DNA of 64,000 nucleotides, taken from positions 1-64,000 of the forward strand of contig NW_020846445.1 of the NCBI RefSeq assembly GCF_003704095.1. The letters run 5' to 3'. The stretch comes from Pocillopora damicornis. Lineage: Eukaryota. Shown piece by piece: positions 1,898-63,754 of this stretch; the stretch's first letter is position 1; each line of letters opens with the position of its first letter. The notes below the pieces were generated by a model. That model did no database searches. It worked only from the letters and a program-made list of their open reading frames with translations, and was not told where the DNA came from. The translations under genes were made by a program, and so were the position numbers.

Positions 1898-3228
1898 ATG
1901 GCAGCTGACGATAATTGGCAGACGGAACTTCCAACTCTCGTCGAAAGAACTGCCTTCATTTTCAACAACGAGATATTGAGCGACGTGAAGTTTGTTGTTC
2001 CTGTGTCGATTGGTGAAATTGAAAGCAAGAAGGTGATCCCAGCTCACAAGTTTGTGCTCGCAATCAGTAGTCCCGTGTTCTTTGCCATGTTCTATGGTCT
2101 AATGGCGGAGACTAAAGACTCTATTGAACTGCCTGACTGTGACTACGAGAGTCTGTTGGAGTTGTTTCGTTTCTTGTACACCGACAAAGTGAATTTAAGC
2201 GGAAACAACGTGATGCAAGTGTTGTACTTGGCGAACAAGTACATAGTACCCTCGCTCGCCAAGAAATGTACAGAATATCTTCACGACAACCTGAATGCAT
2301 CTAATGTGTTTTTCATTCTGCCGCACGCTCGGAAATTTGAAAATAAAGACTTAGAAGATCGATGCTGGAAAGTGATTAAAGAGCAGACAGAAGAAGCTGT
2401 GACGTCAGATGGATTTATTTCAGTTGAGCGATCTGTTGTTGAATCTGTTGTGAAGCGAGAGAAGTTGAGCGTAACGGAACTAAAACTGTACAAGGCAGTC
2501 GATGGCTGGGCCGCGGCAGAAGTACAAAGGCAAGGACTTACTCCTGATGGAAAGACGAAGAGACGAATTCTTGGGGAGGACATTGTTAAGGCAATACGAT
2601 TTCCACTGATATCACAGAAGGATTTTATGTCAGTTGTATTCGATTCTGATATTCTCACTTTTCATGAGGTTGGAAACATGATGAAACATTACAGCGGCGT
2701 TTTAAAATATCCTTTGTTATTTAAGGATACCGCAAGGAGCGGTATTCCGATGTATTATTCCGATTTCTAAAATTCAATCCGCCAATTGGTATGAACGGAA
2801 CTTGGTCTTACTTAGGTAGAGCCGACAGTATTGGATTTGCAATCAACCAGCCAATCTTTCTACACGGTGTTCAGCATTTTGGCTCAGACGGCGGCAAGTA
2901 TACTGTTTCTACCGAAGTTAAAGTTACAGCCCACAATTCTTGCCTCCGAAAGGAATCAGGAACATACTCTTCCATAAAGGAAGAGACTAATAATCATTAT
3001 AGCTTCGATGTAATGTTTGATCCGCCAATTCGTTTGGAGGCTCATAAAAGCTATAGGCTTGTGTCGCTTATCAAGGGTCCTCCATCATGGTATCAAGGAG
3101 AGGGAGTAAAGTCTTTTGAATCGAAAGGAGTGCTGGTCAATTTCATGAAGTCAGTGGAGAGTGCCAATGGGACTTCGGAAACGAGTGGCCAATTTCCAGC
3201 TTTCATATTTAGTACTTGTCAGGCATAA
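1898..3228 (+). pseudogene. BTB-BACK-PHR (BTBD6-like) gene, copy 1, frameshifted at the BACK/PHR junction
   Basis: ORF 1898-2770 has the BTBD1/2/3/6 signatures WQT..T..ER..FIFNNE.LSDVKF and AHKFVLAISSPVFFAMFYG, plus a BACK region. The PHR domain (RFLKFN..WSY..DSI.F..LHGVQHFG..GQFP) continues from 2761 to 3228 in another frame. Net +2 nt versus the paralogue at 7881-7910, with TATTCCGAT duplicated at 2743-2751 and 2756-2764. Confidence 0.85.
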
Positions 3229-3482
3229 ATAATTGGAAATTAGTTTTGGATTGTTTTTGCTGCTAATAGTTGATGAAGTTAAAAATTATTGAATACGTAC
3301 CGTACTTTTATTCGTTGCGACCTGGTAAGTGCTTAGAAGTGAATTAAGTGCTACGACGGAATATTGGAATGCTTTTGGAATGTTTCACCTATTACTTAAG
3401 TTGTAACATTAAACAATAATGATTTTCCGAAATAAAAATAAACCTTCGAACAGTTTGTTGTATCGTCAGCCAGAAATTAGAT

Positions 3483-3582
3483 NNNNNNNNNNNNNNNNNN
3501 NNNNNNNNNNNNNNNNNNNNNNNNNNNNNNNNNNNNNNNNNNNNNNNNNNNNNNNNNNNNNNNNNNNNNNNNNNNNNNNNNN
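3483..3582. other. Assembly gap (100 N)
   Basis: Run of exactly 100 N, typical of an unsized scaffold gap. Confidence 0.99.
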
Positions 3583-6428
3583 ACAAGCAACGTGTTAATC
3601 ATCTTTAATACTGCAGCTGTCTTGAGAGAGTCAATGAGGAAAAGGCTTTGACTGCTAACGGTTAACCCAGAAATACGCATAACGACACTTTGGAGATAGG
3701 AAAAATTTTTACGGTTAACTTATATACGACCGACACTTAAAATTTGTTTCTTTTTACCATTGATGGCTAAATTCATTGTTCATTTTACGGCTAACGGTTA
3801 ACCCTATTGAGACCCTCACATAAGCCTGACAATACTGAGTAGTGACCGAGAAGTGTAGGCTTGAACTCTGACTGTGATGTAAATAACGGGGGGGACGGGG
3901 GGCGGGGGGGTAAGGAAAACGTCACCATGAAATGACTGAAATGCGCCCAGTTTCATTGCTGCTCCCGTCCATCTTGCTCTTTATGTTTGCTAATTTTCAA
4001 CCATTGCAAACCTCTTATAATTTTTGGGTTTGCAAACTGACTAGAAGTTGACAACACATCCTTCTGTTATTAAAAAGCCTCTTCACTCCCAAGATCTCGA
4101 TGTCCTTTTTTTCTTCCCCGTTAGTGATATCTTTCTTTAAATTTCGGCTCAAAGAGTCACGTGTTAAATCAAACAGTTTTCGCTGGTGGATGTTCAATTC
4201 CTCATCACTTTTCGATCAGAAAATTTGTTGATGTTGTTAGGAGAAATTACTTGTTGGTCATTCTTAAGAGTGAAAAGGTTAAACGATCACTCTGTTTTTT
4301 TCTTTTTTTTTCTGTTTTTCAAAATTGTCTCACGAAGCACATGCAGGTTCTCTTCAGTTAATCATCAACACCAGTGGATATCCTAGTGTCAAAATTTGAA
4401 GATTTTGGGGATTTTTGGAAGATTTTCCCTTATTTGGGATCGAGCTGTGTGAGAAAGGAGTCCGCAAAAAAACAAAAAACAATAAATGACCTCCCCCTTC
4501 GCCCCCCTCCCCTCCCATTCTTCACCCCTCTCCCTAGATTGGAATATCCTTTCCTAGCCCCTTGAACCATGATAAAAGACAATCATGCACCCGTCGGGCT
4601 AATCTTTAACGGATAAATTAATGTTTGATATAATGTTGTCAAAGTGTTGACGGATAACGCTGATCAGCGATCAGGTTAGGTCAACAGCCACATTATTATT
4701 AACCAACATACAGGATATGTCTATGAACGCTTTTTGTCAGCTGATCATCTTAAGCGTGCTTCTATCGTCATCTCCCATAACAGGTAATACGCTGATGTTT
4801 TATTTCCATACTTTCGTTTGGAGGTTTTGAACAAAAATTTATATTCTAGTTTTTTTTCTGTGTAAATGATTTATTAAACATTTGTCAGTTTATGTACGTT
4901 GCGCCATTCGCTCTTTGACGAGTAAAACATGGCTCAAAGCTTGCGTAAGTAGTTGAGGTCAGTCAGTTGTAGTCACGTGTAACTGTGAATGTGATTTTCT
5001 GTATGCAGTATCGTCAGTGACAATGAGCTTATAATAAAGTTATGATTTCTACTGTTGCCCAGTGGCACTGACATTGTGCAGTATTATGGGCTGTTATAGG
5101 CTGTTAATTTGCAACAAAACGACACTCTCTTCCGATACAAATGATAATTACGTCCGTGTTTTTTGGGGGTCGTTTTCTACTCTCTATTAACATTCTCTCA
5201 ACTTTGTATTTCAGTTTAAACTTTTTTGGAGAATAAAGGATAAACCACCCGTGGTGTTACACGTCACGCAACGCTCTCTTTCCGGCCAACCGTTACGTGT
5301 TCTTTAGGCCCTCATATGAATAGCGGACTAAATTTGTTTCGGGATGTTTTCTGAATAACTTTACTACAAAATAATCAATTATTGCAATTATGAATCACTG
5401 TGCACCAAAGAAGCAAAAAGTGGGATGTGGTAGACGATTCTCATCTTGACTCTGCCACAAAACGATAGACACATTTTCCATAACATGCCTTTGTTGAAAT
5501 TAAAGGAATGAAGGAAACAGTTCTGCTAAACGATGTAGAAGGAGGGTCAAGTGATATTTCATAGTATCATCGAACGACTTTTGTCGAGACAAGAAAAAAT
5601 TATTCGGGCAAATCAACAGCCTCCCTCCCTGGTGTACTTATTTACGTGAGCGTTGACTCTCCATTACATCAAGACAAGTCATTTTACCTGTTTTGCAGCA
5701 GCCCTTTTTCGATTTTTTTCTTTGTTATGGCTACTGACCTCTTTAACAGTTATAATTTGGTAATTATTAGAGACCACTTATTAATTATATATCGCCTGTA
5801 AGGGGGGGGGAGTGAGGGGGGGGTGAGGGGGGGGTTGAAGGAGATTTTGGGGTATCACATGGTCGCCAAAAAGGGAGGACTATAGAAAATTGACTACTAA
5901 TGAGGGGAGGGTGGAGAACTTTGGTTGAGTCAAAATAAAATTAATTTGATCCCTCACCCCTCCCCCCGTAAAGCTCTGTATTATTCTGACGATACTTCTA
6001 ATTGGCAGCCAATTTTCTGTAGTCCCCTCTTTATACTCTATTGGCGACGACAGATCCCCCCTCCATTCTCCCTGAAAATCTTGTGACCCTCTAAATCCTG
6101 CAACCACTTCCCCCCCCCCACCCGAGAATACTGACTGGTCTCAAAGTAAAGCTTTTATTTACCGGGGGGATTTTCCATCTAATTTCTGGCTGACGATACA
6201 ACAAACTGTTCGAAGGTTTATTTTTATTTCAGAAAATCATGATTGTTAATGTTAAAACTTAAGTAATAAGTGAAACATTCCAAAAGCATTCCAATATTCC
6301 GTCGTAGCACTTAATTCACTTCTGAACACTTACAAGGTCGCAACGAATAAAAGTACGGTACGTATTCAATAATTTTTAACTTCATCAACTATTAGCAGCA
6401 AAACAATCCAAAAATAATTTCCAATTAT

Positions 6429-7271
6429 TTATGCCTGCCAAGTACTAAATATGAAAGCTGGAAATTGGCCACTCGTTTTCGAAGTCCCATTGGCACTCTC
6501 CACTGACTTCATGAAATTGACCAGCACTCCTCTCGATTCAAAAGACTTTACCCCCTCTCCTCCATACCATGATGGAGGACCCTTGATAAGCGACACAAGC
6601 CTATAGCTTTTATGAGCCTCCAAACGAATTGGCGGATCAAACATTACATCGAAGCTATAATAATTATTAGTCTCTTCCTTTATGGAAGAGTATGTTCCTG
6701 ATTCCTTTCGGAGGCAAGTAATATTGTGGGCTGTAACTTTAACTTCGGTAGAAACAGTATACTTGCCACCGTCTGAGCCAAAATGCTGAACACCATGTAG
6801 AAAGATTGGCTGGTTGATTGTAAATTCAATACTGTCGGCTCTATCTGAGTATGACCAAATTCCTTTTGCTGGCGAATTGAACTTTAGAAATCGATTACAT
6901 CGGAATAAAACGCTCCTTGCGGTATCCTTAAATAACAAAGGATATTTTAAAACGCCGCTGTAATGTTTCATCATGTTTCCAACCTCATGAAAAGTGAGAA
7001 TATCAGAATCGAATACAACTGACATAAAATCCTTCTGTGATATCAGTGGAAATCGTATTGCCTTAACAATGTCCTCCCCAAGAATTCGTCTCTTCGTCTT
7101 TCCATCAGGAGTAAGTCCTTGCCTTTGGACTTCTGCCATGGCCCAGCCATCGACTGCCTTGAACAATTCTAGTTCCGTTACGCTCAACTTCTCTCGCTTC
7201 ACAACAGATTCAACAAAAGATCGCTCAACTTTAAAAAATTCATCTGACGTCACAGCTTCTTCTGTCTGCTC
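6429..7271 (-). CDS. BTB-BACK-PHR gene, copy 2 (3' part; 5' end lost in gap)
   Basis: Open frame from the gap edge to the stop at 6429, near-identical to copies 1 and 3 (BACK plus complete PHR ending GQFPAFIFSTWQA). Its 3' flank, 6177-6428, is the reverse complement of 3229-3482. Confidence 0.85.
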   Translation of the reverse strand, partial: EQTEEAVTSDEFFKVERSFVESVVKREKLSVTELELFKAVDGWAMAEVQRQGLTPDGKTKRRILGEDIVKAIRFPLISQKDFMSVVFDSDILTFHEVGNMMKHYSGVLKYPLLFKDTARSVLFRCNRFLKFNSPAKGIWSYSDRADSIEFTINQPIFLHGVQHFGSDGGKYTVSTEVKVTAHNITCLRKESGTYSSIKEETNNYYSFDVMFDPPIRLEAHKSYRLVSLIKGPPSWYGGEGVKSFESRGVLVNFMKSVESANGTSKTSGQFPAFIFSTWQA

Positions 7272-7371
7272 NNNNNNNNNNNNNNNNNNNNNNNNNNNNN
7301 NNNNNNNNNNNNNNNNNNNNNNNNNNNNNNNNNNNNNNNNNNNNNNNNNNNNNNNNNNNNNNNNNNNNNNN
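7272..7371. other. Assembly gap (100 N)
   Basis: Run of exactly 100 N. Confidence 0.99.
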
Positions 7372-8357
7372 TGGCGAACAAGTACATAGTACCCTCGCTC
7401 GCCAAGAAATGTACAGAATATCTTCGCGACAACCTGAACGCATCTAATGTATTTTTTATTCTGCCGTACGCACAGAAATTTGAAAATAAAGACTTAGAAG
7501 ATCGATGCTGGAAAGTGATTAAAGAGCAGACAGAAGAAGCTGTGACGTCAGATGAATTTTTTAAAGTTGAGCGATCTGTTGTTGAATCTGTTGTGAAGCG
7601 AGAGAAGTTGAGCGTAACAGAACTAAAATTGTACAAGGCAGTCGATGGCTGGGCCACGGCAGAAGTACAAAGGCAAGGACTTACTCCTGATGGAAAGACG
7701 AAGAGACGAATTCTTGGGGAGGACATTGTTAAAGCAATACGATTTCCATTGATATCACAGAAGGATTTTATGTCAGTTGTATTTGATTCTGATATTCTCA
7801 CTATTCATGAGGTTGGAAACATGATGAAACATTATAGTGGTGTTTTAAAATCTCCTTTGTTATTTAAGGATACCGCAAGGAGCCTTTTATTCCGATGTAA
7901 TCGATTTCTAAAGTTCAATTCGCCAGCAATAAAAATTTGGTCATACTCGGGTGGAACTGACAGTATTGAATTTACAACAAACAAGCCAATCTTGCTACAT
8001 GGTGTTCAGCATTTTGGCTCAGACGGTGGCAAGTATACTGTCTCTACCGAAGTTAAAGTTACAGCCCACACTTCTTGTCTCGGAAAGAAATCAGGAACAT
8101 ACTCTTCAATAAAGGAAGAGACTAATAATTATTATAGCTTCGATGTGATGTTTGATCCGCCAATTCGTTTGGAGGCTCATGAAAGCTATAGGCTTGTGTC
8201 GCTTATCAAGGGTCCTTCATCATGGTATGGAGATGAGGGAGTAACGTCTCTTAAATTGAGAGGAGTGCAGGTCAATTTCATGAAGTCAGTGGAGAGTGCC
8301 AATCACACTTCGGAAACGAGTGGCCAATTTCCAGCTTTCATATTTAGTACTTGTTAA
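7372..8357 (+). CDS. BTB-BACK-PHR gene, copy 3 (5' end lost in gap)
   Basis: Frame is open from the gap edge (ANKYIVPSLAKKCTEYLRDNL...) through ORF 7515-8357; PHR intact, ending GQFPAFIFSTC. Confidence 0.88.
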
Positions 8358-8690
8358 GCATAGATAATAGAAAATTATTTTTTGATTGTTTTTGCTGCTA
8401 ATAATTGACGAAGTTAAAAATTATTGAATACGTACTTTTGTTCTTTGCGACCTTGTAAGTGTTCAGAAGTGAATTAAGTGTCACGACGGAACATTGGAAT
8501 GCTTTTGGAATGTTTCACTTATTACTTAAGTTGTTACGTTAAACAATAATGACATTCTGAAATGAAAATAAACCTTCGAACAGTTTGTTTGTATCGTCAG
8601 CCAGAAATTAGATGGACACTTCCCCTGGTGAATTACAGCTTTACTTTGGTACCAGTCAGTATTCCTCGGCTTTTAAGCCGACGGTTAAAA

Positions 8691-8894
8691 CCCTTTAACT
8701 CCCATGAGTGACCAAGACAGAATTTCTTCTTACAATATCTATACAATATCATGCAGACAAGTGATAAGACTAAAGAAAAATATCCATTACGGGATTACTA
8801 ATTGATCTGATATCAAATTCTCCAAACTAACATGATGAGAATCATTCTGCAGACAGTAAGGGAAATTAATAATGGGATCTTGGGAGTTAAAGGG
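8691..8894. mobile_element. ~204-bp MITE with CCCTTTAACTCCC...GGGAGTTAAAGGG terminal inverted repeats (piggyBac-like ends)
   Basis: 13-bp TIR visible at both ends; same length and family as 26548-26751. Confidence 0.8.
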
Positions 8895-9740
8895 TTGATA
8901 GGGGGTGGGGTTGTTGCAGGATTTAGAGGATCACAAGATTTTTAGGGAGAATGGAGGGGGGATCTGTCGTCTCCAATAGTTTATGAAGAGGAGACTATAG
9001 AAAATTGACTGTCAGTGAGGGGCATCCTTAGAATAATGCAGAGCCTTAGGAGGAAGGGGGGGGGGGCGGGTTGTGGAGGGATCAAATTAATTTTATTGTG
9101 ACAAAAATAAAAATTTCGAAATACCCCCCTCCCCTACCCTAGGCGATGACCGGTGCCTTTAGCGATGTGTGAGTTTTTACAGCTTATTACTGTTCAGTGC
9201 CTTTCGAGTTGATGCATTGGGGGCAAGAAATTTCTGTACCAAATCAATTTCTTTGCCTCTTCTGAAGCTTAGGATATTATTTTGAATTCGGAGGATGCGA
9301 TCGAGGTCATCTTTTATTCTCCACGAAAGGTAAACTGAAATACAAAGTTCGGAGAGTGTTAAAAGAGAGTGGAAAACAACCCCCAAAAAACACGTACGTA
9401 ATTATCATGAGTATCTGAAGAGAGTATCGTTTGGTTGCAAATTAACAGCCCATAATAATGCACAATGTCAGTGCCACTGGGCAACAGTAAAAATCATATC
9501 TTTATTAAAGGCTCATTGTTTACCTGACGATACTGCATACAGAAAATCACATTCACAGTTACACGTAAAAATCATAAGAGGTTTGCGCTGGTTGAAAATT
9601 AGCAAACATGAAGAGTTAGACGAGTCAAACTGTTTAAATTCCCATAAATCTTTGCCCAAAGTGAAACCACAGCAAACATGCCAAAATTTGCACCAACTTA
9701 ACAAAAAATCTGCGAAGAGTATCGAGAGTGGAACACAACG

Positions 9741-10800
9741 ATGGCGGCAGAAGAAAACTGGCAGTCGAAACTATCAACCATAGCCGAGAAGACCGCTTTC
9801 ATCTTCAACAAGGAGTTAGTGAGCGATGTAAAATTTGTCGTTCCAATGTCGACAGACGAAAGCGAAAGAAAACTCACAAGTTTGTGCTCGCAATCAATAG
9901 TCCTGTGTTCTTTGCCATGTTCTATGGTCAAATGGCGGAGACTAAAGACTCTATTGAACTGCCTGACTGTGAGTACGAGAGTCTGTTGGAGGTGTTTCGT
10001 TTCATGTAAAGCAACAATGTGAATTTAAGCGGAAGTAATGTAATGAAAGTGCTGTACTTGTCGAACAAATACACGGTATCGCTTGTCGAGAAATGCGAAG
10101 AATATCTTCGAGAAAACCTGAAAGCATCGAACGTGTTCTGTATTCTGCCGCACGCTCAGAGATTTGAAGATAAAGACTTAGAAGATCGATGTTGGGAAGT
10201 GATTAAAAACCAGACAGAAGAAGCTGTGACGTCAGACGAATTTATGTCAGTTGAGAGATCTGTTGTTGAATCTGTTGTAAAGAGAAGTGTTGAATGTGAC
10301 GGAAGTGGAACTGTTCAAAGCTGTTGATCGCTGGGCCAGAAAAGAATGTGAAAGGCAAGGGATGACTTCTGATGGAAGGACAAAGAGACAAATTCTCGGA
10401 GAAGATATTGTTAACGGAATACAGTTTCCTCTGATGGAAGAGAAAGATTTTGTATCTGTCGTATTGGACTCTCATCTCTTGAATATTGAAGAATTATGCA
10501 ACATGATAAAACTCTACAACAATGTTTTGAATATTCCTTTACCGCGCGTATAAGCCTGTAGAGGTATTTTACGATGTCAGAGACTTAAGATGTTTTTCTC
10601 AGGACCATACTGGGGTAACGACGGCAAAGACCCTGACTGTATCATTCTCACCGTCAACAAGCCTATCGGTTACACGGAGTTGAACATTTTGGTTCTGATG
10701 GAGGCGAGTACACAGTTAAGACAGACATTTTTGAACCCATGGACAACACTTCGCTCGTAAAACGAGCGGGAAATTATACTTCAGAAAAAAGCGATACCCA
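9741..10800 (+). pseudogene. BTB-BACK-PHR pseudogene, copy 4
   Basis: MAAEENWQ start. Frameshifting deletion before AHKF (~9868), TAA at 10007, 2-nt loss at ~10283, TAA at 10551. PHR similarity stops abruptly at ~10800 (NYTSEKSDT), where repeat-like sequence begins. Closest to copy 9. Confidence 0.9.
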
Positions 10801-11239
10801 CGTTATCCATACCGCGGATGTCCTTCGAGAAAAAATTCGTACGCGAGCTAGTCTCACTAAAATCCTAGCAAACTATATATCAGAGAAAAGTAACTTCAGT
10901 TTACGATTAAGATTTAATTTAAGCGCCTTTTCTTTTAAGGAAGACACAGGAAGTGTCAGGAGCCGGTAAGGCGTGAAACGACCGAAGGTTCTTTTATTTA
11001 ATTTATCGGGTATCGGATGCCGCAGCACGAGCAAGATAGCTGCACAGTCTCATTCACAAGGCATTAATCAACAAAAGTGTGTCAGGCTTTTTTTGATATT
11101 CTGATTTGTTGTCTAGATATCGGCATCTTAAGTTGGAGGGTAAGCTGGAAAACCAGGAATCCGGAATTCCGGCGGAATTCCGCCGTAATTTCGCCGGAAT
11201 TTTTCAACGTCCGTTTTTTTTAAATTCAAAATGACTCCG

Positions 11240-11470
11240 ATGATTTTCCGAAGAGTGTACGAGCTCCGAATATACTCCGAAGATTAACCGAAGATTATCC
11301 GATGGCTTCCAAAGTTACCCGGAGAGCCCCGAATTTTTGAAGGCTTGCTTTTTCAATTCCTTTTTTTCTTCTATCAAGATTTTTCCGAAGAGGGTACGAG
11401 CTACGAATATATACACCAAGGATTAACCGAAAATTATCCGAGGGTTTCCGAAGTTACCCGGAGATTACCG
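11240..11470. repeat. Imperfect ~85-bp direct repeat rich in CCGAAG, inside a probable transposon remnant
   Basis: TTTTCCGAAGAG.GTACGAGCT.CGAATATA...GATTAACCGAA.ATTATCCGA.GG.TTCC.AAGTTACCCGGAG occurs at ~11243 and ~11381; CCGGAATTCC-type palindromes precede it at 11161-11200. Confidence 0.7.
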
Positions 11471-11649
11471 AGGAACAATCGAGCCCCCGGCTTCATCTAT
11501 TTTTCACTTATTTTTCTATTTTATCTTTTGTTTATTTTTAATTATTAACATCTATTTTTAACGGCCGTTAAACTAAATAATAAACAGCAAATCATTCGTC
11601 AAATTATGGGTTAACATGGTCAGCGTCCCTTTAACCGAGATCTCGATTA

Positions 11650-12506
11650 CCGTAATTTCCGGTCGTTTACCCGCACAGCCGATTACCCGCACCGGCCGAT
11701 TATTGCATAAGGCGGAAGAAAAAGTCAACAGATTACCCGCACGTTATGTTATTCAACTTTTTGGTGGCGGAAACGTGACATTAAGGTGATACATTTCAGT
11801 CTTTTAAAAGTTGTCTGATCCAACTTTCGAAAACTTGAAAGCGTCTTTGTCGAGTTTAAAGGTCAAAGAAATTCAGACGCGTGCACAATTCTGTGTCAAT
11901 ATTAGCATGTACTTTATTGATAAGATTATACAGTAAAAACACTAGCGGACCATGCCCAAATCTCAACGCTTCATACTTAACAGAATGCGAATTTGTGGTC
12001 ACATTTTGTGCGAGCGATCGTTCGGCGCCATATTGATTTGTTGAAAAAAAGCTGGGTGAGTATTAGAACTTGAATTATAAAGTACTGTCGGCGATTTCTG
12101 AAAAAAAATCGATATCTCCGGTTCTATTGGGCCTAACAAGTCCCTTAAAACGGGAAAATTCTCTTTAGCTCAAGCTGTGTTAAATGGAAATTTGTTTCTG
12201 ATGCGCCGGATATCTTTGGATTATTTTTGTCACCATCAAGGTTTTGTTTTCACGCGTGCCGATAGCGCAACTAATTATGCGTGAAATAAACTCGAGTCGG
12301 CATCATGTTTTCGTGCCGCTTTGCGGCACTCTTAATACAATAAAATTCATTTGAGAGGTGGAAACGCATGTTGGTGATAATTTTTTTCAATTCAACTACC
12401 ACTAGATTTTAAAATTGTCACATAACCAGCACCTCCCTATTACCCGCAGTGGCGCGCGTTTAATGCAAAATCAACAGATTACCCGCGGGTTAACGACCGG
12501 AAATTA
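11650..12506. mobile_element. Non-autonomous TIR DNA transposon (Tc1/mariner-pogo-like ends)
   Basis: Left end TA|CCGTAATTTCCGGTCGTTTACCCGC; right end GCGGGTTAACGACCGGAAATTA (inverted match with 1 mismatch in 22 bp). TTACCCGC subterminal repeats near both ends. No transposase ORF. Superfamily assignment is by resemblance only. Confidence 0.7.
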
Positions 12507-13673
12507 AAAACCGTACAAGGAAAATATAACAAAGCCTAAGTCAATCTGCCATTTACTCAATTACAATTCCGGGAAAGCACTGCTTAACGAAAGCGATAAG
12601 CTCTTCCGTTAGAGACGGGCCTTCCTCAGTCCTCCACAACAGACCCTGCAAGTGGCCTGCTTGGAACCAGGGACGACGTGTGCACAGACACGCTATGTTA
12701 ATATGGTAGTACCTTCTTTGTGCTCTTCCTAACTTCCAACATTTGGTGCAATCTAGGTACATATTTGGATTCCAGTCCACCTCTAAACGTCCAATGACTG
12801 CTATGCTGTCAACAGATTGAGAGTCTTTTTGAAAAAACGAAAAAGCGAGAAGAGACAAAAACGGGGGTTTCCCTTAATTTGAAGGCACCGAAGGGAAAAA
12901 TCCCAGTCCTCTTGACCTGTTCATTGTCTGAAAAAGCAAAAGAAAAACTTCTTTGGACTTCTAAGACGCTGTCTTCCTCGGGGGTTTCCCATTCATTCCA
13001 AAAATACAAAAAGCTGCTGTTAGCACTTTTTGCATCATTTTTTGCACTGTCACGAGACATACAAGGATGACTCTTGTTATTTCACTCTGCAAGACGTGAT
13101 TGTTGATGAGCAATCTCTCTCTCTAGCTATTTGGAAACTAGGCTGTTAATCACCGAGAAAATTTTGAGAATTGAAGTTTTGCAAGACATACGTGACTCAT
13201 CATCTGATGCGACTGTCTGGTGACATCACTTGTCTCTTGAAATAAGATATGAATAATGATTCAATTTTTGTTCCCCGCGCTTGTGCTAGGGATTGAGGAT
13301 ATTCATAAACCATCTTACCAGAAAAGAAGAGAAAACCGTGCAGAAATATTGCTTGCCTTTTTAAGTTGTAAGAGCGACGAACTGAAAGAAGAGAAAGGTT
13401 ATCGAGGACAGTGTTAAATTTTTCCGACGGGTTAGACCCTGTTCAGTCGTAAGAAGAGACAAAATTAATAAAATTGATCTCCTTATATAATTTGTCGGCT
13501 GCTTGGAGCGATTACCTGTTGTAGGATATCAATTGCATCATAACATTTAACACGGCTTTGCAGTTGTCTCTTTCTCTTTGACCGGAGAGAAAAAAAATAG
13601 ACGTCTTCTAACTGTTGCCTTAACACATTGTGTGAGATAAGACCCTGAGAGATACTGAGAGCAGACCAAAGAG

Positions 13674-15056
13674 ATGCCTATGGAAGAAATCTGGCAGACG
13701 AAACTTCCAACTCTTGTTGATAGAACCACTTCTATTTTCAACAGTGAGTTACTGAGCGATGTAAAATTTGTCGTTCCGGTGTCGACTGCGGAAAGTGAAA
13801 GTAAGAAAGTGATCCCAGCTCACAAGTTTGTTCTTGCCATCAGTAGTCCTGTGTTCTTTGCCATGTTCTATGGTCAAATGGCGGAGACTAAAGACTCTGT
13901 TGACCTGCCTGACTGTGAGTACGAGAGTCTGTTGGAGTTGTTTCGTTTCTTGTACAGCGACAAAGTGAATTTAAGCGGAAGTAATGTGATGCAAGTGTTG
14001 TACTTGGCGAATAAATACATGGTGCCTTCACTCTTGGACAAGTGCACAGAATACCTTTGCAACAACTTGACAACATCCAACGTATTTTGTATCCTGACAC
14101 ATGCTCAGAAATTTGGCGGTAAATCTTTAGAAGATCGATGCTGGGAGGTGATTGAGCGGCGAACCGAAGAGGCTGTGACTTCAGACGAATTTGTTACAGT
14201 TGAGCGATCTGTTGTTGAATCTGTTGTCAAGAGAGAAGTATTAAATGTGAAAGAGGTGGAACTGTTCAAAGCTGTTGATCGCTGGGCTACAAAGGTGTGT
14301 GAAAAGGAAATTCCAATAGCCCCCAGTGATGGAGAAGAAAAGAGACGAATTCTTGGAGATGAGATCGTTAAAGCAATACGGTTTCCACTGATGTCGGAAG
14401 AGGTGTTTATGTCTGAGGTGCTTAATTCTCACATCCTTGCTCTTAATGAGGTTGAAGATATGATAAAGCATTACAGAGGGGTTCTTCAGTCACCTTTGCC
14501 GTTTAAGAAAGGCGCGAGGGGTAAAATTGACTACATCCGTTGTAACCGATTTCAAAAGTTTAATGCTCCGTGCAGTGGAAGCGATGGTTGGTTAGGTGCC
14601 GGGTATTACAGTGTTACAGTCCCAAGCTCCGGTGGTTCTTGGTCTTACAATGGTGCAGCGGCTGACAGTGTCAATTTTACAGTCAACAAGCCAATCATGT
14701 TACACGGAGTTCAACACTTCGGTTCTGTAGGTGGCAACTACACGGTTTCCACTGAAGTTAAAGATACCACCCACAACTCTTGTCTTGGAAAAGAATCAGG
14801 AACTTACACCTCAGAAAAGGAAGACAGGAAGAATTATTATGGCTTTGATGTATTGTTTGATCGTCCAGTTTCGCTGGAAGCAAACAAACAGTACACCTTA
14901 ATGTCTGTTATCGAGGGTCCTTTGTCATGGTATGGAGCGGAAGGACAAATGTCCGCTGAGTCAGGAGGGGTGCAATTCAGTTTCAGTGATTCAGACGATG
15001 ATTCTAACAGCACCTCGGTTACAAACGGCCAGTTTCCAGTCATTATTTTCAATTAA
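13674..15056 (+). CDS. BTB-BACK-PHR (BTBD6-like) protein, copy 5, intact, 460 aa, intronless
   Basis: Single ORF with all three domains; PHR motifs RCNRF, LHGVQHFGS, FDVLFD.P, GQFP. Confidence 0.95.
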   Translation: MPMEEIWQTKLPTLVDRTTSIFNSELLSDVKFVVPVSTAESESKKVIPAHKFVLAISSPVFFAMFYGQMAETKDSVDLPDCEYESLLELFRFLYSDKVNLSGSNVMQVLYLANKYMVPSLLDKCTEYLCNNLTTSNVFCILTHAQKFGGKSLEDRCWEVIERRTEEAVTSDEFVTVERSVVESVVKREVLNVKEVELFKAVDRWATKVCEKEIPIAPSDGEEKRRILGDEIVKAIRFPLMSEEVFMSEVLNSHILALNEVEDMIKHYRGVLQSPLPFKKGARGKIDYIRCNRFQKFNAPCSGSDGWLGAGYYSVTVPSSGGSWSYNGAAADSVNFTVNKPIMLHGVQHFGSVGGNYTVSTEVKDTTHNSCLGKESGTYTSEKEDRKNYYGFDVLFDRPVSLEANKQYTLMSVIEGPLSWYGAEGQMSAESGGVQFSFSDSDDDSNSTSVTNGQFPVIIFN

Positions 15057-15859
15057 TTTCTGGGTACACTACTTAGTGGTTTCTCTTTTTTACTCGTTAA
15101 GTTTTTCAAGACTTCAATTGAAGGTACGTCTTTTACGGATGAAAGAAGTCGAAAAAGATTCTTAAGAAATTAGCATCTGGCAGTTAAAAGAAAGCTAAAT
15201 GAATTTCGAATTTGGTCCGTTAGTTTTTCTCAGTTTAAGATTTTTCTAAATTTCGTATGCGTGAAAAGGCACCAAATAGGTCGTTTGATTCTGGCCCCTT
15301 TGATTCCATCATCAGAAAAATAGTAGAGTGGCAAAGTTTAGTTCAAGGCGTTTGTAACGAAGTTTTCATGTTTTTATCGGTACAATTTCTTGTTGATTGT
15401 TTCAATTCAATTTTGCTCTGTAGGCAAGTCGAGGCGTTGTGACCAGGAGCAATGGGTTTCAAGGATTTATAAAGTTTAGAATTTTTTCAAGGTTTTCACA
15501 CTGGCAGACATAAACTACGGTGTTAAACAAGGATTTTCAGCCCTGAAATCGTGATGTTAGGCTCTTGTTGAGTAAATTTTGAGGTGAAAGAACTCTTGAA
15601 AGACGACAGACTTGTATTAAATGTCGATTTTCAATAAGTGAAAACATTTCATTGTTCAAGATGTCTTCTTCCACAGAGTACATTTCAGAAACCTCAGAAT
15701 GCCCCTCCCCGAAAAAGTCTCAGTGTGAACTGTTATACGTATCAATAGGAACCTACACTCATTAGTTCAGCGGGCGAATACATATTTTCCACAATAAGAG
15801 TAAGAGGAAAGAAATTACTGTCGTTGAAGAGAATTGAAAGCGGTACCTTAGTAGGCGAC

Positions 15860-17127
15860 AGAAGAAACTGGTATCGTCTTTACGGTAAGCCGAACCTCGT
15901 TTATTTTCAACCACAATGTACTGAGCGATATGAAGTTTGTTGTTGCAATGTCGAATAACGGAAGCGAAACTGCCTAACTGTGAGTACGAGAGTCTGTTGG
16001 AGTTTTTTCGTTACATTTACAGCGACACTGTCGTTGGAGTGAAATTAAGTGGAAGCAATATATGATGCAAGTTCATTACTTGGCGAAAAAATTGATACCT
16101 TTGCTGGCTGAGAAATGCTCTGAATACCTGAAATGGATCCTGACATCATCCGGCGCATTCTTAATTCTTCACTACGGACAGAAATTTGAAGATTAACGTT
16201 TGGAAGGTCGATGTTGGGAAATAATTGGATTATACACTGAAGAACTCATGTCAGATGATTTTGTTACTGTGGAGCGATCTGATATCGAGTGTCTTGTAAA
16301 CAGGAGAGTGTTGGTTATCACAGAGGTAGAATTGTTCTGTTCGCTGGGCCACAAAAGAATGCGAAAGGCAAAGTATATCTTCTGATGGAGAAGCGAAAAG
16401 ACGAAATTGTAAAACCAATACGGTTACCATTGATGTCGCAAAAGGAGTTTACCTCTACTGTGTTAAATTCTATATTTTCGACTGATGAAGAGTTTGGCAT
16501 CGTTATGAAATACTACAGCGATTAATTCACGTCTCCTCTATCATTCCGAGACATTCCAAGACGTAAGAAGAAACACCCAACCGCTCACACGTTCCTGGTT
16601 GTAAGAAGAAATCTCTAAAGGGCAACTGCGTGGACTTCCATAGGTGTACTGAGGAGTTCTTAGCGGAAACCCGCTTTCTCGCTGCAAAAGATTTAACTAT
16701 TCCAGTCTTCTAAATATCTTTAGGGGTTATTCTGGCTTCAATTCTCAGTCGACAAACCCATCACGTTACTTGTAGTTCAGCACTTTGGCTCGGAAGGTGT
16801 GAAGAGAACATAGTATCTACAGAAGTTATTGATACAACAAACAACGCATCGGTTGCACATCAATCTAGAACATACCCTTCAGGGATGGACGACATTGCGA
16901 ATTATTACGGTTTTCATGTATCGTTTTATTGTCCTGTTTATTTGGAGACACATAAACAGTACAAGGTGCAGTCGATTGTCGACGATCCTATCTCATGGAG
17001 CGGAAAACAAGGACAGACATTTGTGGAATCCGAAGGGGTGCGATTCACTTTCAGTGATGCAGAAGATGGTACAGCTGATGACACTTCCGTAGTGCACGGC
17101 TTATTTCCAGCTTTTCTCTTGTCTTAA
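15860..17127 (+). pseudogene. Heavily decayed BTB-BACK-PHR pseudogene, copy 6
   Basis: Collinear fragments (EENW, FIFN..LSDMKFVV, LPNCEYESLLEFFR, LEGRCWE, IRLPLMSQKEF, QHFGSEG, YYGFHVSF, GVRFTF, GLFPAFL) in shifting frames with stops and deletions. Confidence 0.88.
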
Positions 17128-18103
17128 TAATATCACGAGTTCGGAAGATGCTTCAGCGGACGATACTCATTCTTATCAAGACCTCGCGCGCTGATTTTCC
17201 CAACAGGTACCAGGGGCAAACAAATAACTCGCCTTTTCCAACTTGAAACAAGTAACACTATTACCATGTTTGATATACATTAAACAGATCAAAACGAGGT
17301 TGTTTCTTCACTTAGTATCATTATTTGTATCACTTGTCTGTTTGATCAACTCGCAGAATGTCTTCCAATCAATTACACTATCTCCATTATTCTATCTATG
17401 TCAATCTAAAACCTTATCTTCAAAATTCCCGTCTTCTTCCTTTTCACATATCATTTAGGTGACAAACTCATATTAAATTTATTCATCAAGAAAGCATGTA
17501 TCGTCGTCTTTTATGTTGATCGGGTTTAACGCATGGTTGCGTCGGCGTCGGCGTCGAGGGACCAATTTGGGAAAATAATTGGAAGCACGAAATTTCTTGC
17601 TAATTTACATTTTACTTTAATTTGCTTTTTATCCTGAAGTGCGCAGTTGATTTTTTAGTTTGCCGACCTTCCTAGTTGTTGTTTAGTCAAATGATGCTTG
17701 ACAAGACGAAAGGATTCTAAAAGAATACCACTTAGTTGAGAAACACATGCGTAACACGTGAATTAACAGCTTTTAAAATTCCTTTTGTCTTAAATAGAAC
17801 AATTGCAAACTTGTGGTGACGATTGCTGTTTGAACTATTAAGCACATCATAGCCAGGCTGCAAGCAAGCCCTTTACCTCCTAACTAGCGCTTCGGTACGA
17901 ACCTTCTTTGCCCAAGACGAGCCGACGAGAGGTGTACAGTGGGGGTTCAAAATGACAGGTCCTGTCATTTTTCACCAATCAGAATTTGTTTCTTTTGTTT
18001 CTTTTGTTTCTCGCACTTTTTTAATTCAAGCAGCTGTTGTTTCCAATAGACCTTATTGAAGAGGATTACTTAAGTACATGTGTAAGCGCGGTGAAAGAAG
18101 AGC

Positions 18104-19411
18104 ATGGAAGTAGGCTGGCAGACGAAGCTACAAGGTCTCGTAGAAAGAACCGCGTTTATTTTCAACAACGAGTTACTCAGCGATGTAAAATTTGTCGTCC
18201 CATTTTCGCCTAGTGAAATTGAATTACGTACGAAGGTAATCCCAGCTCACAAGTTTGTGCTCGCAGTCAGTAGTCCCGTGTTCTTTGCCATGTTCTATGG
18301 TCAAATGGCGGAGACTAAAGACTCTATTGAACTGCCTGACTGTGATTATGAGAGTCTGTTGGAGTTGTTCCGTTTCTTGTACAGCGACAAAGTGAATTTA
18401 AGGGAAAGAAATGTGATGCAAGTGTTGTATCTGGCAAACAAATACATGGTGCCTTCACTCGCCGAGAAATGTTCAGAATATCTCCGAGACAATTTGACAG
18501 CATCAAACGCGTTCAGTATTCTGACGCTCGCTCATAAATTTGAAGATAAAAATTTGGAGTATCGATGCTGGAAAGTTATTGAGAAGCAGACGGAAAAAAC
18601 TGTGAGAGGAGACGAATTTGTTACAGTTGATCGATCTGTAGTTGAATCTGTTGTGAAGAAAGAAGTGTTGAATGTGACAGAAGTGGAACTGTTCAAAGCT
18701 GTTGATCACTGGGCTACGAAAGAATGTGAAAGGCAAGGATTAACTGTTAATGGAGAGAGCAAAAGAAGAATCCTTGGAGAGGAGATAATTCGAGCAATAC
18801 GGTTTCCGTTGATGTCACTGAAGGAGTTTGAGTCAGTTGCGCTCGACTCTAATATTCTAACCATTGATGAGGTACGCGACATAATGAACCATTTTAAGGG
18901 CGCTTTAAAATTACCTTTGCCATTTATGGACAGCGCCAGGATCCATTTCCGTTGTAACCGATTTCCAAAATTCAATGTACCGGCCGGAAGTGGCTGGTAC
19001 CACAGTGGAGCGTACAGTGTAAATTTTACCATCAACAAGCCTTTAAAGCTTCTTGGAGTGGAACAGTTTGGCTCAGAAGATGGCGAGTATACCGTGTCTA
19101 CTGAAGTTAAAGATACAGCCCACAACTCTTGTCTTGGAAAAGTATCAGGAACGTACACGTCAGTAAAGGACGATACGGACATCTACTTTGGCTTCGATGT
19201 AATGTTCAATCGTCCAGTTTGTTTGGAGGGAAATAAACAGTACACGTTGGTGTCAGTTGTAAAGGGTCCTGTGTCATGGTACGGAGAAGAAGGACAATTG
19301 TCCGTTGAATCCGGAGGGGTGCAGTTCACCTTCAGTAAATGTACATTCAAGAATGATAACGGTCACAGCTCAGTGACTTCAGGCCAGTTTCCCGCTTTCA
19401 TTTACAGCTAA
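18104..19411 (+). CDS. BTB-BACK-PHR protein, copy 7, intact, 435 aa, intronless
   Basis: Single ORF with BTB, BACK and PHR motifs, ending GQFPAFIYS. Confidence 0.95.
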   Translation: MEVGWQTKLQGLVERTAFIFNNELLSDVKFVVPFSPSEIELRTKVIPAHKFVLAVSSPVFFAMFYGQMAETKDSIELPDCDYESLLELFRFLYSDKVNLRERNVMQVLYLANKYMVPSLAEKCSEYLRDNLTASNAFSILTLAHKFEDKNLEYRCWKVIEKQTEKTVRGDEFVTVDRSVVESVVKKEVLNVTEVELFKAVDHWATKECERQGLTVNGESKRRILGEEIIRAIRFPLMSLKEFESVALDSNILTIDEVRDIMNHFKGALKLPLPFMDSARIHFRCNRFPKFNVPAGSGWYHSGAYSVNFTINKPLKLLGVEQFGSEDGEYTVSTEVKDTAHNSCLGKVSGTYTSVKDDTDIYFGFDVMFNRPVCLEGNKQYTLVSVVKGPVSWYGEEGQLSVESGGVQFTFSKCTFKNDNGHSSVTSGQFPAFIYS

Positions 19412-20012
19412 ATTTTGGTTACAGTACGTAACAGAATCACTATTTGGGGGACAAGTCGATATTCGTGGCCGAGGGGGTGGGGTAGACGATTTGGGTGGAT
19501 GAAGGATCTCGGGGGTTCACGTGGTTTCCAGGGGGATAAATAATGACCGGTCGCTTGAGTGTTTTCATATTTCACTCCGAAATTAGAGGTCTATGAGCCA
19601 TGTGAACAGGATGGTGTCCTGGCGGTTTTAGGATACTAAATACTTGTGATGGGTAAAATAATTCACCTCTCAGAAAATTACACCTTGATATTCAGAACCA
19701 AATGAATCGCAAACCATATATAGTTTGCACAAATGTAAAGCTGCCCAATAAAATTAGATTTTTATAAGATGTAGCAATTTTCTATTAAGTGTCGAAAGTA
19801 AGGCGTGATTGCTTTGGTTTTGATTCGCTACTCTTTAAGCTTCGTCCATAAAATTGGCGCTACTCTTGACCAATTGAATACAGAATTGAAAGCAACTTGG
19901 CCTCCTGCGTTTCTCCTGCTCCTCTGGCACTATGCCACCACCCCACGCAGCAAACAGTGAGCCATGTGTTCGTAAAAATTTCTCCCACACGTTGCAAAAA
20001 CATATAAAGGAT

Positions 20013-20195
20013 AATAAACATAATATACGTGGCCTCCATTTTGGCGAACGCTCTTATATTTTATCCTTGGGCATCATCTGTTCCTCGAAGCTCACAGTTT
20101 CCTCGAGCATCCCTCTCAGAAAACTGTTCGCTTCTCAGAACAGATGTTCGCGAACATCCGTTCATATTTTCGCGCCAAATGGAGGCTATTGTTTG
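20013..20195. mobile_element. MITE-like repeat with inverted ends (GCCTCCATTT(T)GGCG / CGCCAAATGGAGGC)
   Basis: Inverted match between ~20032-20046 and 20173-20186, extended by AAACA...TGTTT; non-coding interior. Confidence 0.6.
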
Positions 20196-20337
20196 TCTAT
20201 CGCTCTGACACAATGTGGCGTGACATGGAATATTTTCATTCAATCACATTGCATAAGCGGCCAATATTTGCCGTGAACATTGTTTACATCGTCATAGTAT
20301 ATCTATTAGAAAGGCTAGACCTGATCGGAAAGTAACG

Positions 20338-21678
20338 ATGGCTGTTGCGGAAGAAAACTGGCAGACGGCATTATCAACTATCACTCGGAGAACTACGTTT
20401 ATTTTCAACAACGAGTTATTAAGCGATGTGAGGTTTGTTGTTCCAGTTTCGACTGAACAAGGCGGAATTAATATGGCGATCCCGGCTCACAAGTTTGTGC
20501 TCGCCATCAGTAGTCCTGTATTCTTCGCCATGTTCTATGGTCAAATGGCGGAGACTAAATACTCTATTGAACTGCCTGACTGTGAGTACGAGAGTCTGTT
20601 GGAATTGTTTCGTTTCATGTACAGCGACGAAGTGAATTTAAGCGGAAATAATGTGATGCAAGTGTTATACTTGGCGAATAAATACATGGTGCCCTCACTA
20701 ACTGAGAAATGTGCCAAATATCTTCGAGAAAATTTGACAGCATCCAATGTGCTATGTATTCTGCCGCAAGCTCAGAAATTTGAAGATAAAGATTTGGAAG
20801 ATCGCTGCTGGAAAGTGATTGATAAACAGACTGAAGAAGCTGTGACTTCAGATGAATTTGTAACAGTTGAGCGATCTCTACTTGAATCTGTTGTAAAGAG
20901 AGAACTACTCAATGTGAAAGAAGTGAAATTATTCAAGGCTGTTGATCGATGGGCCACCAAGGGATGTGAACGAGAAGGGATCCTCCCTGATGGACTGGCG
21001 AAGAGACGAATTCTAGGCGAAGAGATCGTGAAAGCAATACGGTTTTCCCTGATGTCGCAGGAGGAGTTCGCTACAGTTGTGGCTGATTCTCACATCCTCA
21101 ACATGCTAGAGGTTGAAGAACTGATGAAACAATTCCGTGAGGATACATCAGTATCATCTGAGTCATTCTTGAATGTTTCAAGAGCGCGTTGCCTTAAGTA
21201 TGTCCATCGATGTAGTAGATTTACAACGATTGTACCTCAATCTTATGACTCCGGGTGGGGATATACACGCGGTATGTCTGATAGCCTTTCGTTCTTTGTT
21301 AGTAATCACATAAATTTACATGGAGTTCAGCATTTTGGGACTGAAGGAGGAAAATACACAGTTTCTACTGAAGTCAAGGATGCCACAGATGACTTATCGC
21401 TCGCAAATCAGTTTGGATTTTACTCAGCAGCGATGAATAACACTAATCAATTCTATGGATTTGACGTATTGTTTGACATACCAGTTTGTTTAGAGCCAAA
21501 CAAGGTGTACAAGGTAAAATCGTTTGTCACTGGCCCAAATTCGTGTTACGGGGACAAAGGGAAAATCTTTGTTGATTGCGAAGGAGTAAGATTCGAGTTC
21601 TGTGAGGGGGGTGATAATAACGGAACGTCTGTGAAACGGGGTCAGTTTCCTTCTTTGATTTTTACTAAGATAAGATGA
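20338..21678 (+). CDS. BTB-BACK-PHR protein, copy 8, intact, 446 aa, intronless
   Basis: Single ORF with the three domains; AATAAA at 21807 and 21860. Confidence 0.95.
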   Translation: MAVAEENWQTALSTITRRTTFIFNNELLSDVRFVVPVSTEQGGINMAIPAHKFVLAISSPVFFAMFYGQMAETKYSIELPDCEYESLLELFRFMYSDEVNLSGNNVMQVLYLANKYMVPSLTEKCAKYLRENLTASNVLCILPQAQKFEDKDLEDRCWKVIDKQTEEAVTSDEFVTVERSLLESVVKRELLNVKEVKLFKAVDRWATKGCEREGILPDGLAKRRILGEEIVKAIRFSLMSQEEFATVVADSHILNMLEVEELMKQFREDTSVSSESFLNVSRARCLKYVHRCSRFTTIVPQSYDSGWGYTRGMSDSLSFFVSNHINLHGVQHFGTEGGKYTVSTEVKDATDDLSLANQFGFYSAAMNNTNQFYGFDVLFDIPVCLEPNKVYKVKSFVTGPNSCYGDKGKIFVDCEGVRFEFCEGGDNNGTSVKRGQFPSLIFTKIR

Positions 21679-46900: not shown

Positions 46901-47308
46901 CTCAGAACATACTTGAATTTTACTCAGCTGAGATTCCATTGCAGCAAACGATCGAAGCGTACGTTCCACGTGACCACAGCCACCAATAGCATCGGAGAAG
47001 CTGTGGTCCAGTACTTTAGCGGTCAGACAGATGCGCGACCAAACTCGTGTAAATCTTTTGTCAGAATGGAAGACGACAACTCAAAATTAGCCAAGGTCTG
47101 CCGACAGTGGGGGTCTAAGGACTCTAGAAAGCGCTACGTTGGTAAATGGAGCTCATGTAATCGCAATGACAACAGATTGTACGATCATACTGTAATCGTC
47201 TGGTGGACCTATCACTGGAATATTCGGCCATCACAACGACGATTTGACTGCGACGATTTTGCACATACAGTGTCTGCCGGTGATTTCTGGAAAGTTTTTG
47301 TACGTTAG
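43948..47308 (+). CDS. Putative secreted PAN/apple - EGF-like - fibrinogen/COLFI-like protein A, 4 exons, 381 aa
   Basis: Exons 43948-44289, 44514-44625, 46029-46175, 46764-47308, in phase (1146 nt). PAN motif SC...C....WCTSANY...CELN; EGF-like CLNGGSC..CSC; PANSCKHI...GDGEYWIDP...KVYCDMTTDGGGWLLV; Trp-rich C-terminal domain. Confidence 0.85.
45290..45745 (-). repeat. Interspersed repeat, with an opposite-orientation relative at 52017-52340
   Basis: Shared blocks AACTTGGCAAGT.AAT.AGTGGAAAATA.GAGTTTTTT, AACCAATCACA and the GTAATCATAC-containing end. Confidence 0.7.
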
Positions 47309-63555: not shown

Positions 63556-63754
63556 AAGAGATATGACCTGACGAACTATTTAATGTAATCATATAAGTTT
63601 AAAAGGTAATCAGTGACGATGGCTGTTTTTTCTTTTTCCGCGACGATTTACTGTTGCTAAAACTTGAAGTTTGGGGTAGTTACACAGAAATAAAAAGCTT
63701 TTTCTTATACATAAAGGGCTGCGTCGGTAGGGCTTGTTACAAGATAATTGGTTT

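Follow-up and report, generated by a model that had tools for sequence, protein, structure and literature searches.

A silently conserved block in the BTB coding sequence of a tandem coral BTB-BACK-PHR array is shared across subfamilies and coral families

We show here that a block of about 100 nucleotides in the BTB coding sequence of a tandem coral gene array is as strongly conserved between subfamilies and between coral families as it is within the array, and that it is common to copies on other contigs, to a second subfamily and to merulinid-like corals. The explanation we favor is that the block contains a hidden nucleotide element kept by purifying selection, together with older gene conversion, and we would give it about an even chance of being right. 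Selection would act here on the nucleotides themselves. The array lies in a window of 64,000 nucleotides of Pocillopora damicornis (GCF_003704095.1, contig NW_020846445.1, positions 1 to 64,000). The first-pass annotation of this window had described a BTB core homogenized at the nucleotide level by domain-restricted conversion among otherwise divergent paralogues. Its observation is confirmed, while its interpretation is partly supported, being only partly right.

The genes of the array are BTBD6-like and have single-ORF coding regions. Pfam BTB, BACK and PHR domains were found above cut-off, in this order, in all four copies scanned, the closest PDB matches are the BTB domain of BTBD6 (2vkp) and the PHR domain of BTBD2 (3no8), and homologues are named BTBD6-like. 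From this domain content and one abstract, the encoded proteins would be Cul3 adaptors. At least 25 copies are present in genome G000, and other corals also carry large expansions. The copies in the window, with the frozen block and its core, are as follows.

1898..3228, plus strand: copy 1, BTB-BACK-PHR, frameshift near 2725-2770
2090..2188, plus strand: frozen block of copy 1, matching codons 66-98 of copy 8
6429..7271, minus strand: copy 2, BACK-PHR portion, 5' end missing in N gap
7372..8357, plus strand: copy 3, 5' end missing in N gap
9741..10825, plus strand: copy 4, pseudogene with stops and frameshifts, sister to copy 9 in BACK and PHR
9920..10018, plus strand: frozen block of copy 4
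13674..15056, plus strand: copy 5, single-ORF BTB-BACK-PHR, intact
13866..13964, plus strand: frozen block of copy 5
15864..17127, plus strand: copy 6, decayed pseudogene, codons ~43-78 deleted, the deletion ending inside the block
15970..16029, plus strand: 3' part of the frozen block (codons 79-98) of copy 6
18104..19411, plus strand: copy 7, intact
18293..18391, plus strand: frozen block of copy 7
20338..21678, plus strand: copy 8, intact
20533..20631, plus strand: frozen block of copy 8, codons 66-98
20575..20598, plus strand: 24-nt core of copy 8, codons 80-87
41322..42610, minus strand: copy 9, inverted, 20 kb off, break late in PHR
42320..42418, minus strand: frozen block of copy 9

Copy 2 shares 92-95% identity with copies 1 and 3, and a 100-N gap removes the block region, with its 32-mer, from copies 2 and 3. 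Copy 8 is covered by RNA-library contigs of four studies; such contigs are unfit to rank copies by expression, and the lack of cover for copies 6 and 7 is uninformative. In public runs the summed contig depth within copy 8 reaches its maximum at 20556-20606, because the block is common to many paralogues.

As the first-pass annotation had noted, 17 of 200 nucleotides separate copy 1 from copy 8 (2041-2240 against 20484-20683), and the two share many silent sites (of codons 50-115, 10 carry a silent difference and 6 an amino-acid change), whereas their PHR domains are less than half identical (62 of 141 residues, 44%; 42-65% over array pairs). This stretch is about the best in the gene, with stepped 201-nt windows differing at 18 to 115 positions. 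The 32-mer is present in seven of nine copies with 0-2 mismatches. Its near-identity in pseudogenes 4 and 6 is real (0 and 1 mismatch) but unremarkable given their rough levels of decay, at which such a match has a probability of 0.19 (copy 4) and 0.16 (copy 6). In this genome the conserved stretch is also narrower than the whole BTB core. In clade A of this genome the block has a silent difference of only 0.08 [0.04-0.13]. The two BTB flanks, at 0.31 and 0.32, equal BACK (0.30), and PHR reaches 0.46. The dip is beyond chance in clade A (p=0.0002) and clade B (p=0.0016) of this genome after correction for scanning of BTB and BACK by permutation within degeneracy classes, with block limits chosen after inspection of the data. 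Among 12 copies of this genome, third positions differ at 9.3% in the block versus 23.7% elsewhere (p=1e-9), whereas positions 1 and 2 show no drop (5.2% versus 6.7%, p=0.17). The adjoining codons 49-65 encode more conserved protein (0.08 versus 0.14) and yet reach silent divergences of 0.28 and 0.39 in clades A and B of this genome, while the first window of the block departs from the trend between amino-acid and silent divergence (z -3.0 to -3.5).

Between coral families the block is slow. Its cross-family dS is 0.22 in clade A and 0.26 in clade B, with a stem dS of 0 (upper ~0.10), which is 4-5 times below the neutral yardstick of 1.05 given by the one-per-species orthologue pair L010/L059. 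Of 50 clade A and B sequences, 48 have at most four mismatches to a single 48-nt consensus, as against none with fewer than six among 18 other family members, and block consensuses differ between species at 0 of 24 and 0 of 19 sites. The neutral rate is identical for converted and single-copy genes according to section 3.1 of PMC3924837. Neutral conversion within one array is therefore insufficient for a block that is slow between species: closeness within species combined with neutral drift of the consensus is absent from the block, although the clade A BTB flanks, whose tips are short and whose stem is 0.26-0.37, partly show it. The single-copy pair dips in the block too by counts (5/23 versus 103/221, p=0.027), but under a codon model the dip is not significant (0.53 versus 1.0-1.2, p=0.4). 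No dip was seen in 18 older members, and the block did not stand out in a scan over ten deep lineages.

A conversion-like layer exists on top of the block. Silent and amino-acid divergence are correlated in multi-copy clades (rho 0.57-0.80) and not in the single-copy pair (-0.05), the pattern expected of homology-dependent copying. The foreign contigs are metagenome-derived and were retrieved by peptide patterns, of which two reach the edges of the block. The block is no outlier in foreign clade B, where silent divergence is uniformly low over codons 49-98 (0.03-0.06; z of about -1). In foreign clade A, silent divergence is lower in codons 49-65 than in the block. Both agree with the prediction of conversion. 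Foreign copies further show silent tracts (L031/L032-L091 and L060-L061, p<=0.004), and BTB data reject two of four PHR-defined foreign clades (p-AU 0.02-0.03), in metagenome contigs that are possibly chimeric, some being mosaics. A single derived change at the third position of codon 85 occurs in 18 of 32 foreign B copies, over several PHR lineages. With all sites included, a few runs at codons 70-83 between clade A and clade B copies of the same genome look conversion-like (p=0.005). The conversion tract expected in the array did not appear, the best silent tract among its five copies having p=0.74 (p=0.10 on adding two copies from other contigs), and neither did the expected BTB-tree conflict for copies 4 and 9, a clade that BTB data do not reject (p-AU 0.19). 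Such named-clade tests were preferred over AU tests on each region's own maximum-likelihood trees, as those comparisons are biased and star-like. GENECONV-like all-site runs within the array (p 0.01-0.05, in conserved stretches) were not counted, because amino-acid constraint yields such runs. In this lineage conversion appears to have been weak or to date far back, while merulinid-like corals appear to have had more of it. Conversion in coral arrays is very rare according to parts of a coral genome paper (PMC10236652), to which the merulinid-like copies suggest an exception, provided that their contigs are not chimeric.

Neutral, domain-restricted conversion within the array, leaving a constant BTB and a variable PHR, would account for the rise of dS among array copies from BTB (1.02) through BACK (1.71) to PHR (3.46) at similar dN/dS (0.25-0.31 over the three domains). 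The domains thus differ in dS (LRT p=4e-15), and the equality that the first-pass annotation had named as refuting its idea is not seen. The short tips of the clade A BTB flanks also speak for it, as do a PHI-like test on the five array copies (p=0.005) and an AU test, on copies of this genome only, in which BTB data were set against the PHR tree (p=0.047, with star-like trees and a bias toward each region's own tree). For the block itself, this proposal is already contradicted by the equal sharing across contigs, subfamilies and families and by the slow cross-family rate, and the array lacks a significant silent tract. Nor is PHR currently variable: copy 8 variants differ at 0-2 of 142 PHR residues, copy 8 clusters with its Stylophora orthologue (P0002; 84% identical overall, PHR 82% versus BTB 86%), and neither copy 8 nor copy 7 shows a sign of ongoing PHR diversification. 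As a complete account we regard neutral, domain-restricted conversion as very improbable. A non-neutral form, in which short ectopic conversions among all dispersed copies peak at a homology island and either make weak selection at silent sites more effective (the Mano-Innan effect) or favor the old allele, would keep the consensus near static and could do everything. We consider it possible though doubtful. The theory is reviewed in section 3.1 of PMC3924837, multi-copy clades show a strong dip and single-copy ones a weak dip, the derived change at codon 85 is common to more than half of the foreign B copies, and GC3 is 0.52-0.60 in the block versus 0.44 in single-copy members and 0.32-0.44 in BACK and PHR. 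Still, T or A occupies many of the invariant third positions, and GC3 is also raised in single-copy BTB (0.44-0.51); codons 49-65, the most conserved stretch of protein, are not homogenized in this genome, and positions 1 and 2 show no parallel drop. Sister-calibrated pseudogenes are likewise unprotected in a weak test: in three of them changes fall at 7/88 third positions in the block versus 12/114 in the flanks, and at 12/183 versus 16/274 first and second positions (P=0.07 against continued protection, low power). Pooling all five pseudogenes, the third-position dip persists (7.6% versus 15.8%, p=0.028), and protection in pseudogenes 4 and 6 is not significant. Conversion biased to the ancestral allele is known from Y palindromes and plastid inverted repeats.

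Two further explanations concern the block alone. A block with many two-fold codons (18 of the 25 informative sites in clade A of this genome) and limits set post hoc might owe its dip to a mutational cold spot, to codon composition or to chance. We judge this very unlikely, given that the dip survives scan permutation, is present in the four-fold class as well as the two-fold class, repeats in both clades of this genome and across families, and lies where pseudogenes mutate normally. Constraint on third positions by an overlapping +1-frame ORF, from an ATG at codon 67 to a stop at codon 99 (32 aa), is likewise very unlikely, even though that frame is open from codon 48 to ~99 in most copies, its limits fit the block in clade A, and first-position toggles of leucine fall less than third positions (3.8 versus 1.6 changes per site, at 5 sites). 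Ten stops interrupt it at codons 53-76 among 50 sequences, one of them in copy 1, the ATG is absent from most clade B copies, and a gap of 52 codons is ordinary for this frame (estimated about 1 in 4). Several copies also have breaks in the in-register antisense frame, and no conserved ORF was found among the five overlapping frames.

Under the favored explanation of a selected nucleotide element, the block would double as a putative sequence-specific regulatory element within the BTB coding sequence, a binding site that these single-ORF genes have in common, either on their mRNA or on their DNA. One putative trans-acting factor, a protein or small RNA, may co-regulate the expanded family through this site; a copy mutating the site would escape control, so that the site would stay fixed in all copies. 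A separate, probably old round of gene conversion would have left the milder gradient of BTB and BACK versus PHR. The narrower proposal that a putative small RNA or paralogue-derived guide controls the family through one coding site, locked since before the split of pocilloporids and merulinids, is unlikely in our estimate. Third positions of the block are conserved across species, as in miRNA sites, and no guide match was found by eye among 31 entries of a Stylophora miRNA table. Eighteen tiled 7-mers gave short, non-extending matches among those listed from a cnidarian miRNA catalogue (530+121 rows), namely 7 nt to miR-2036 and a different 7-mer occurring in four rows. All 20 genomic matches to block patterns with at most three mismatches are family genes, and eight non-family wobble matches in G000, when folded, gave no miRNA-like hairpin. 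No conserved RNA structure was detected in the block (covariation term -0.11; double changes in 2 of 20 pairs; folding z 0.1 to 1.3), Rfam gave no match to it, and its core is absent from viral contigs. By eye, a 7-bp inverted repeat proved broken and uncompensated in many copies, and a 5' splice-site-like hexamer overlaps codon 83, the most variable position.

Plant miR482/2118 targets NLR genes at a coding-region site. If a single guide-recognized site were true of the corals, it would be an animal counterpart of this control, in stony corals. In excerpts of PMC7935066, cnidarian coding-region miRNA sites such as miR-2025/Six3-6 are likewise frozen at third positions over deep time, but the coral block is ~100 nt with a 24-nt core and has no complementary miRNA or hairpin among those searched. 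Protocadherin clusters, in parts of PMC1852091, also have one part homogenized at silent sites, with higher GC3, beside a diverse recognition part; within a subcluster their converted regions are all but identical, and between subclusters they have diverged strongly, unlike the coral block, which is the part common to subfamilies and families. For mammalian HSPA1A/B, the abstract of PMC5865164 likewise describes conversion with purifying selection and mutation-free regions, there whole-gene, two-copy and within-species, here a short block in dozens of copies. BTBD1/2/3/6-type Cul3 adaptors share the same three domains, their Cul3 role being only predicted for the array, whereas the coral genes are single-ORF and multi-copy. 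Thomas 2006 reportedly treats birth-death F-box and MATH-BTB adaptor families. Such nematode and plant families are likewise expanded, tandem and rich in pseudogenes, with conserved cullin-binding and diverse substrate parts, whereas in coral copies 7 and 8 ongoing PHR diversification left no sign, region-wide dN/dS being 0.3-0.5; Thomas 2006 is cited in an excerpt of PMC1866355. Low silent divergence among tandem paralogues, usually taken as conversion, can thus reflect cross-species constraint, and an orthologous single-copy control tells the two apart. The result is a precise candidate element of 24-100 nt, common to dozens of coral ubiquitin-adaptor genes, whose 24-nt core, chosen after the data were seen, is retained too in the single-copy orthogroup L010/L059 and in L087.

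The window (G000:C3080:1-64000) belongs to a stony coral with its closest named homologues in Pocillopora and Stylophora. It holds nine BTB-BACK-PHR (BTBD6-like) copies, c1 to c9, and the coding region of the intact ones is a single ORF.

c5, c7, c8: intact
c1: frameshift upstream of PHR
c9: break late in PHR
c2, c3: truncated by a 100-N gap
c4, c6: pseudogenes

The whole assembly (G000) has at least 25 additional or overlapping family matches spread over many contigs, and 26 stretches of such matches were retrieved. RNA-library contigs from four studies cover c8, which suggests transcription, though DNA in the libraries is another possible source. Copies c1, c2 and c3 (2229-3482, 6122-7271 and 7372-8669) share 91-95% identity, 3' flanks included, and c2 and c3 point apart on either side of the 100-N gap; the cause is a recent inverted triplication or, alternatively, an artefact of assembly or haplotypes. 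At the start of its PHR, c5 (13674-15056) carries an insertion of ~17 aa resembling a duplicated SxGW/SW motif. The PHR-bearing locus L024 (G000:C3883), with its coding region in two frames ~650 nt apart and the top PHR score of the genome, is possibly an intron-bearing relative of the single-ORF copies.

The first-pass annotation had proposed gene conversion restricted to BTB within this array, giving a constant BTB and a variable PHR. Its comparison of c1 and c8 was reproduced (17 differences in 200 nt), as was its sequence sharing, seven copies carrying a 32-mer with 0-2 mismatches. Among c1, c5, c7, c8 and c9 the four-fold-site difference is 0.17 at codons 50-116, 0.29 in BTB, 0.36 in BACK and 0.56 in PHR, and dS tree lengths from our own MG94-type model, with relative branch lengths fixed, are 1.02, 1.71 and 3.46 for the three domains (p=4e-15; dN/dS 0.25-0.31). 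The domains do differ, as had been claimed, but the low signal covers a short stretch: within own clade A (G000 copies of one of two subfamilies) it occupies codons 66-98 (the block; 20533..20631 in c8) and not the whole BTB. There the silent difference is 0.08, against 0.31 at codons 24-65, 0.32 at 99-132, 0.30 in BACK and 0.46 in PHR. In a scan of tree-based change counts, permuted within degeneracy class, the low point fell at codons 66-87 for own A (p=0.0002) and at 64-91 for own B (p=0.0016). It fell at 47-67 for foreign (other-coral) A and at 86-108 for foreign B, and 18 other members had none. Three of four public runs show a 20- to 40-fold rise in contig depth over 20556-20606. The large deletion in c6 has its end within the block (15950-15970) and the fragment L011 likewise terminates at codon 81, possibly marking a breakage-prone site.

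These comparisons draw on 66 near-full ORFs from the window, the genome and a single metagenome scan that yielded 79 other-coral loci; partial loci were excluded except six included as fragments, the alignment had 77 rows, later extended by 10 broken or partial copies, and five near-duplicates were excluded from counts. Own A comprises c1, c5, c7, c8, c9, L001 and L002 (c1 and c9 counted though damaged), and the other groups are foreign A (n=6), own B (n=5), foreign B (n=32) and other members (n=18). Locus L074 matches an Orbicella faveolata protein exactly, L056 clusters with one, and L059 has 92% identity to the representative of an Orbicella-containing cluster; the remaining foreign loci, placed by trees and links, appear merulinid-like or have no family assigned. 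The scan used peptide patterns, two touching the block edges, which select amino acids and not silent letters, and metagenome contigs may be chimeric at the block because assemblies branch there. In one coral, dozens of clade B copies (P0229-P0292) lie on a few megabase contigs.

The block extends beyond the tandem array. Among A and B sequences, 48 of 50 lie within four mismatches of a single 48-nt consensus (mean 2.2), the median for 48-nt windows being 7.1 and the best window outside the block 3.4. Under a two-star model, cross-family dS in clade A is 0.72 at codons 24-65, 0.22 in the block, 0.78 at 99-132, 0.88 in BACK and 1.22 in PHR; the clade B values are 0.74, 0.26, 0.59, 1.09 and 1.80, and the block stem dS is 0 in both clades (upper bound ~0.10). 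The control is L010/L059, from an orthogroup that has one gene per species and is represented in Pocillopora, Stylophora, Orbicella, Oculina and Montipora; its dS is flat at ~1.05 (BTB 0.92, BACK 1.20, PHR 1.04).

Along the gene, silent and amino-acid divergence correlate in multi-copy groups (rho 0.57-0.80) and not in the single-copy pair (-0.05). Silent-site tracts reach significance in foreign L031/L032-L091 and L060-L061, but the five own-genome groups tested yielded no significant tract. Of four foreign B clades defined by PHR, two are rejected by the BTB data; the c4+c9 clade is not. Paralogues of this family have therefore likely copied from one another, although in this array the process is old or slow. 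At present the constant-plus-variable picture does not hold: variants of c8 show 0-2 differences among 142 PHR residues, and its Stylophora orthologue is 86% identical in BTB, 88% in BACK and 82% in PHR. The c8-cluster variants P0127 and P0001 carry, at the protein level, paralogue-type residues (F90 with K98; K114), which could be short conversions. The block feature is real and its earlier attribution is wrong in part.

According to section 3.1 of PMC3924837, conversion alone leaves the neutral rate unaffected; the 4-5-fold slowdown of block dS between families therefore requires selection or biased copying, and neutral conversion within the array is improbable. We regard purifying selection on a nucleotide element, together with older conversion, as the best explanation, and give it about an even chance. 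The drop is confined to third positions, where change is 9.3% in the block versus 23.7% (positions 1+2, 5.2% versus 6.7%). Block dN/dS is 0.64-0.71, and the adjoining codons 49-65 have stronger protein conservation yet are silently divergent in G000. Also in favour of selection, the single-copy pair dips in the block (5/23 versus 103/221, p=0.027; not significant in a codon model), and three pseudogenes with sisters decay evenly in block and flanks, a weak test. A 24-nt core is retained in L010, L059, L087, L006 and L013 (3 differences in 34 silent sites) and not in L009, L074, L086 and L014; it was selected post hoc, and a deep-lineage scan gave it no distinction.

Biased or amplified conversion is the foremost rival to selection, though we consider it unlikely. 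It fits an effect that increases with copy number, foreign clades that are flat across all codons 49-98, a derived codon-85 change common to 18 of 32 foreign B copies, and modestly higher GC3. A mutational cold spot or chance is scarcely more probable than neutral conversion. The least probable reading is an overlapping ORF; no conserved one was found at the block.

Comparison systems are plant miR482/2118 acting on NLR genes, for a small-RNA site, and Y palindromes and plastid inverted repeats, for conversion biased toward the ancestral allele. Thomas 2006, reportedly on birth-death F-box and MATH-BTB adaptor families, and Noonan 2004 are further background studies. PMC7935066 places cnidarian miRNA sites in coding regions, where third positions would be expected to freeze. 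However, no miRNA guide for the block was found in the 530+121-row catalogue (PMC13343488 supplement), to which further supplements may add miRNAs, in the PMC3962355 table or in a search of the G000 genome, and no RNA structure was found at the block. Our literature search, with most subscription papers outside it, found no paper on the coral BTB-BACK-PHR expansion or the block; the main text of PMC10236652 does not mention BTB, and related literature comprises PMC1852091, PMC1866355, PMC5865164 and bioRxiv 10.1101/575910.

Elsewhere in the window, each of the four RNA runs covers a repeat at 11570-12811 with contigs to very high depth, and exon 1 of a Fringe-like gene (PF02434) lies at 28434-29060. 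Multi-exon PAN/EGF/COLFI-fibrinogen-like genes, two in tandem, occupy 43924-51752, three related basic ORFs of 230-258 aa matching no Pfam family above cut-off lie at 54069-61776, and reverse transcriptase fragments (RVT_1) lie at 62808-63575.
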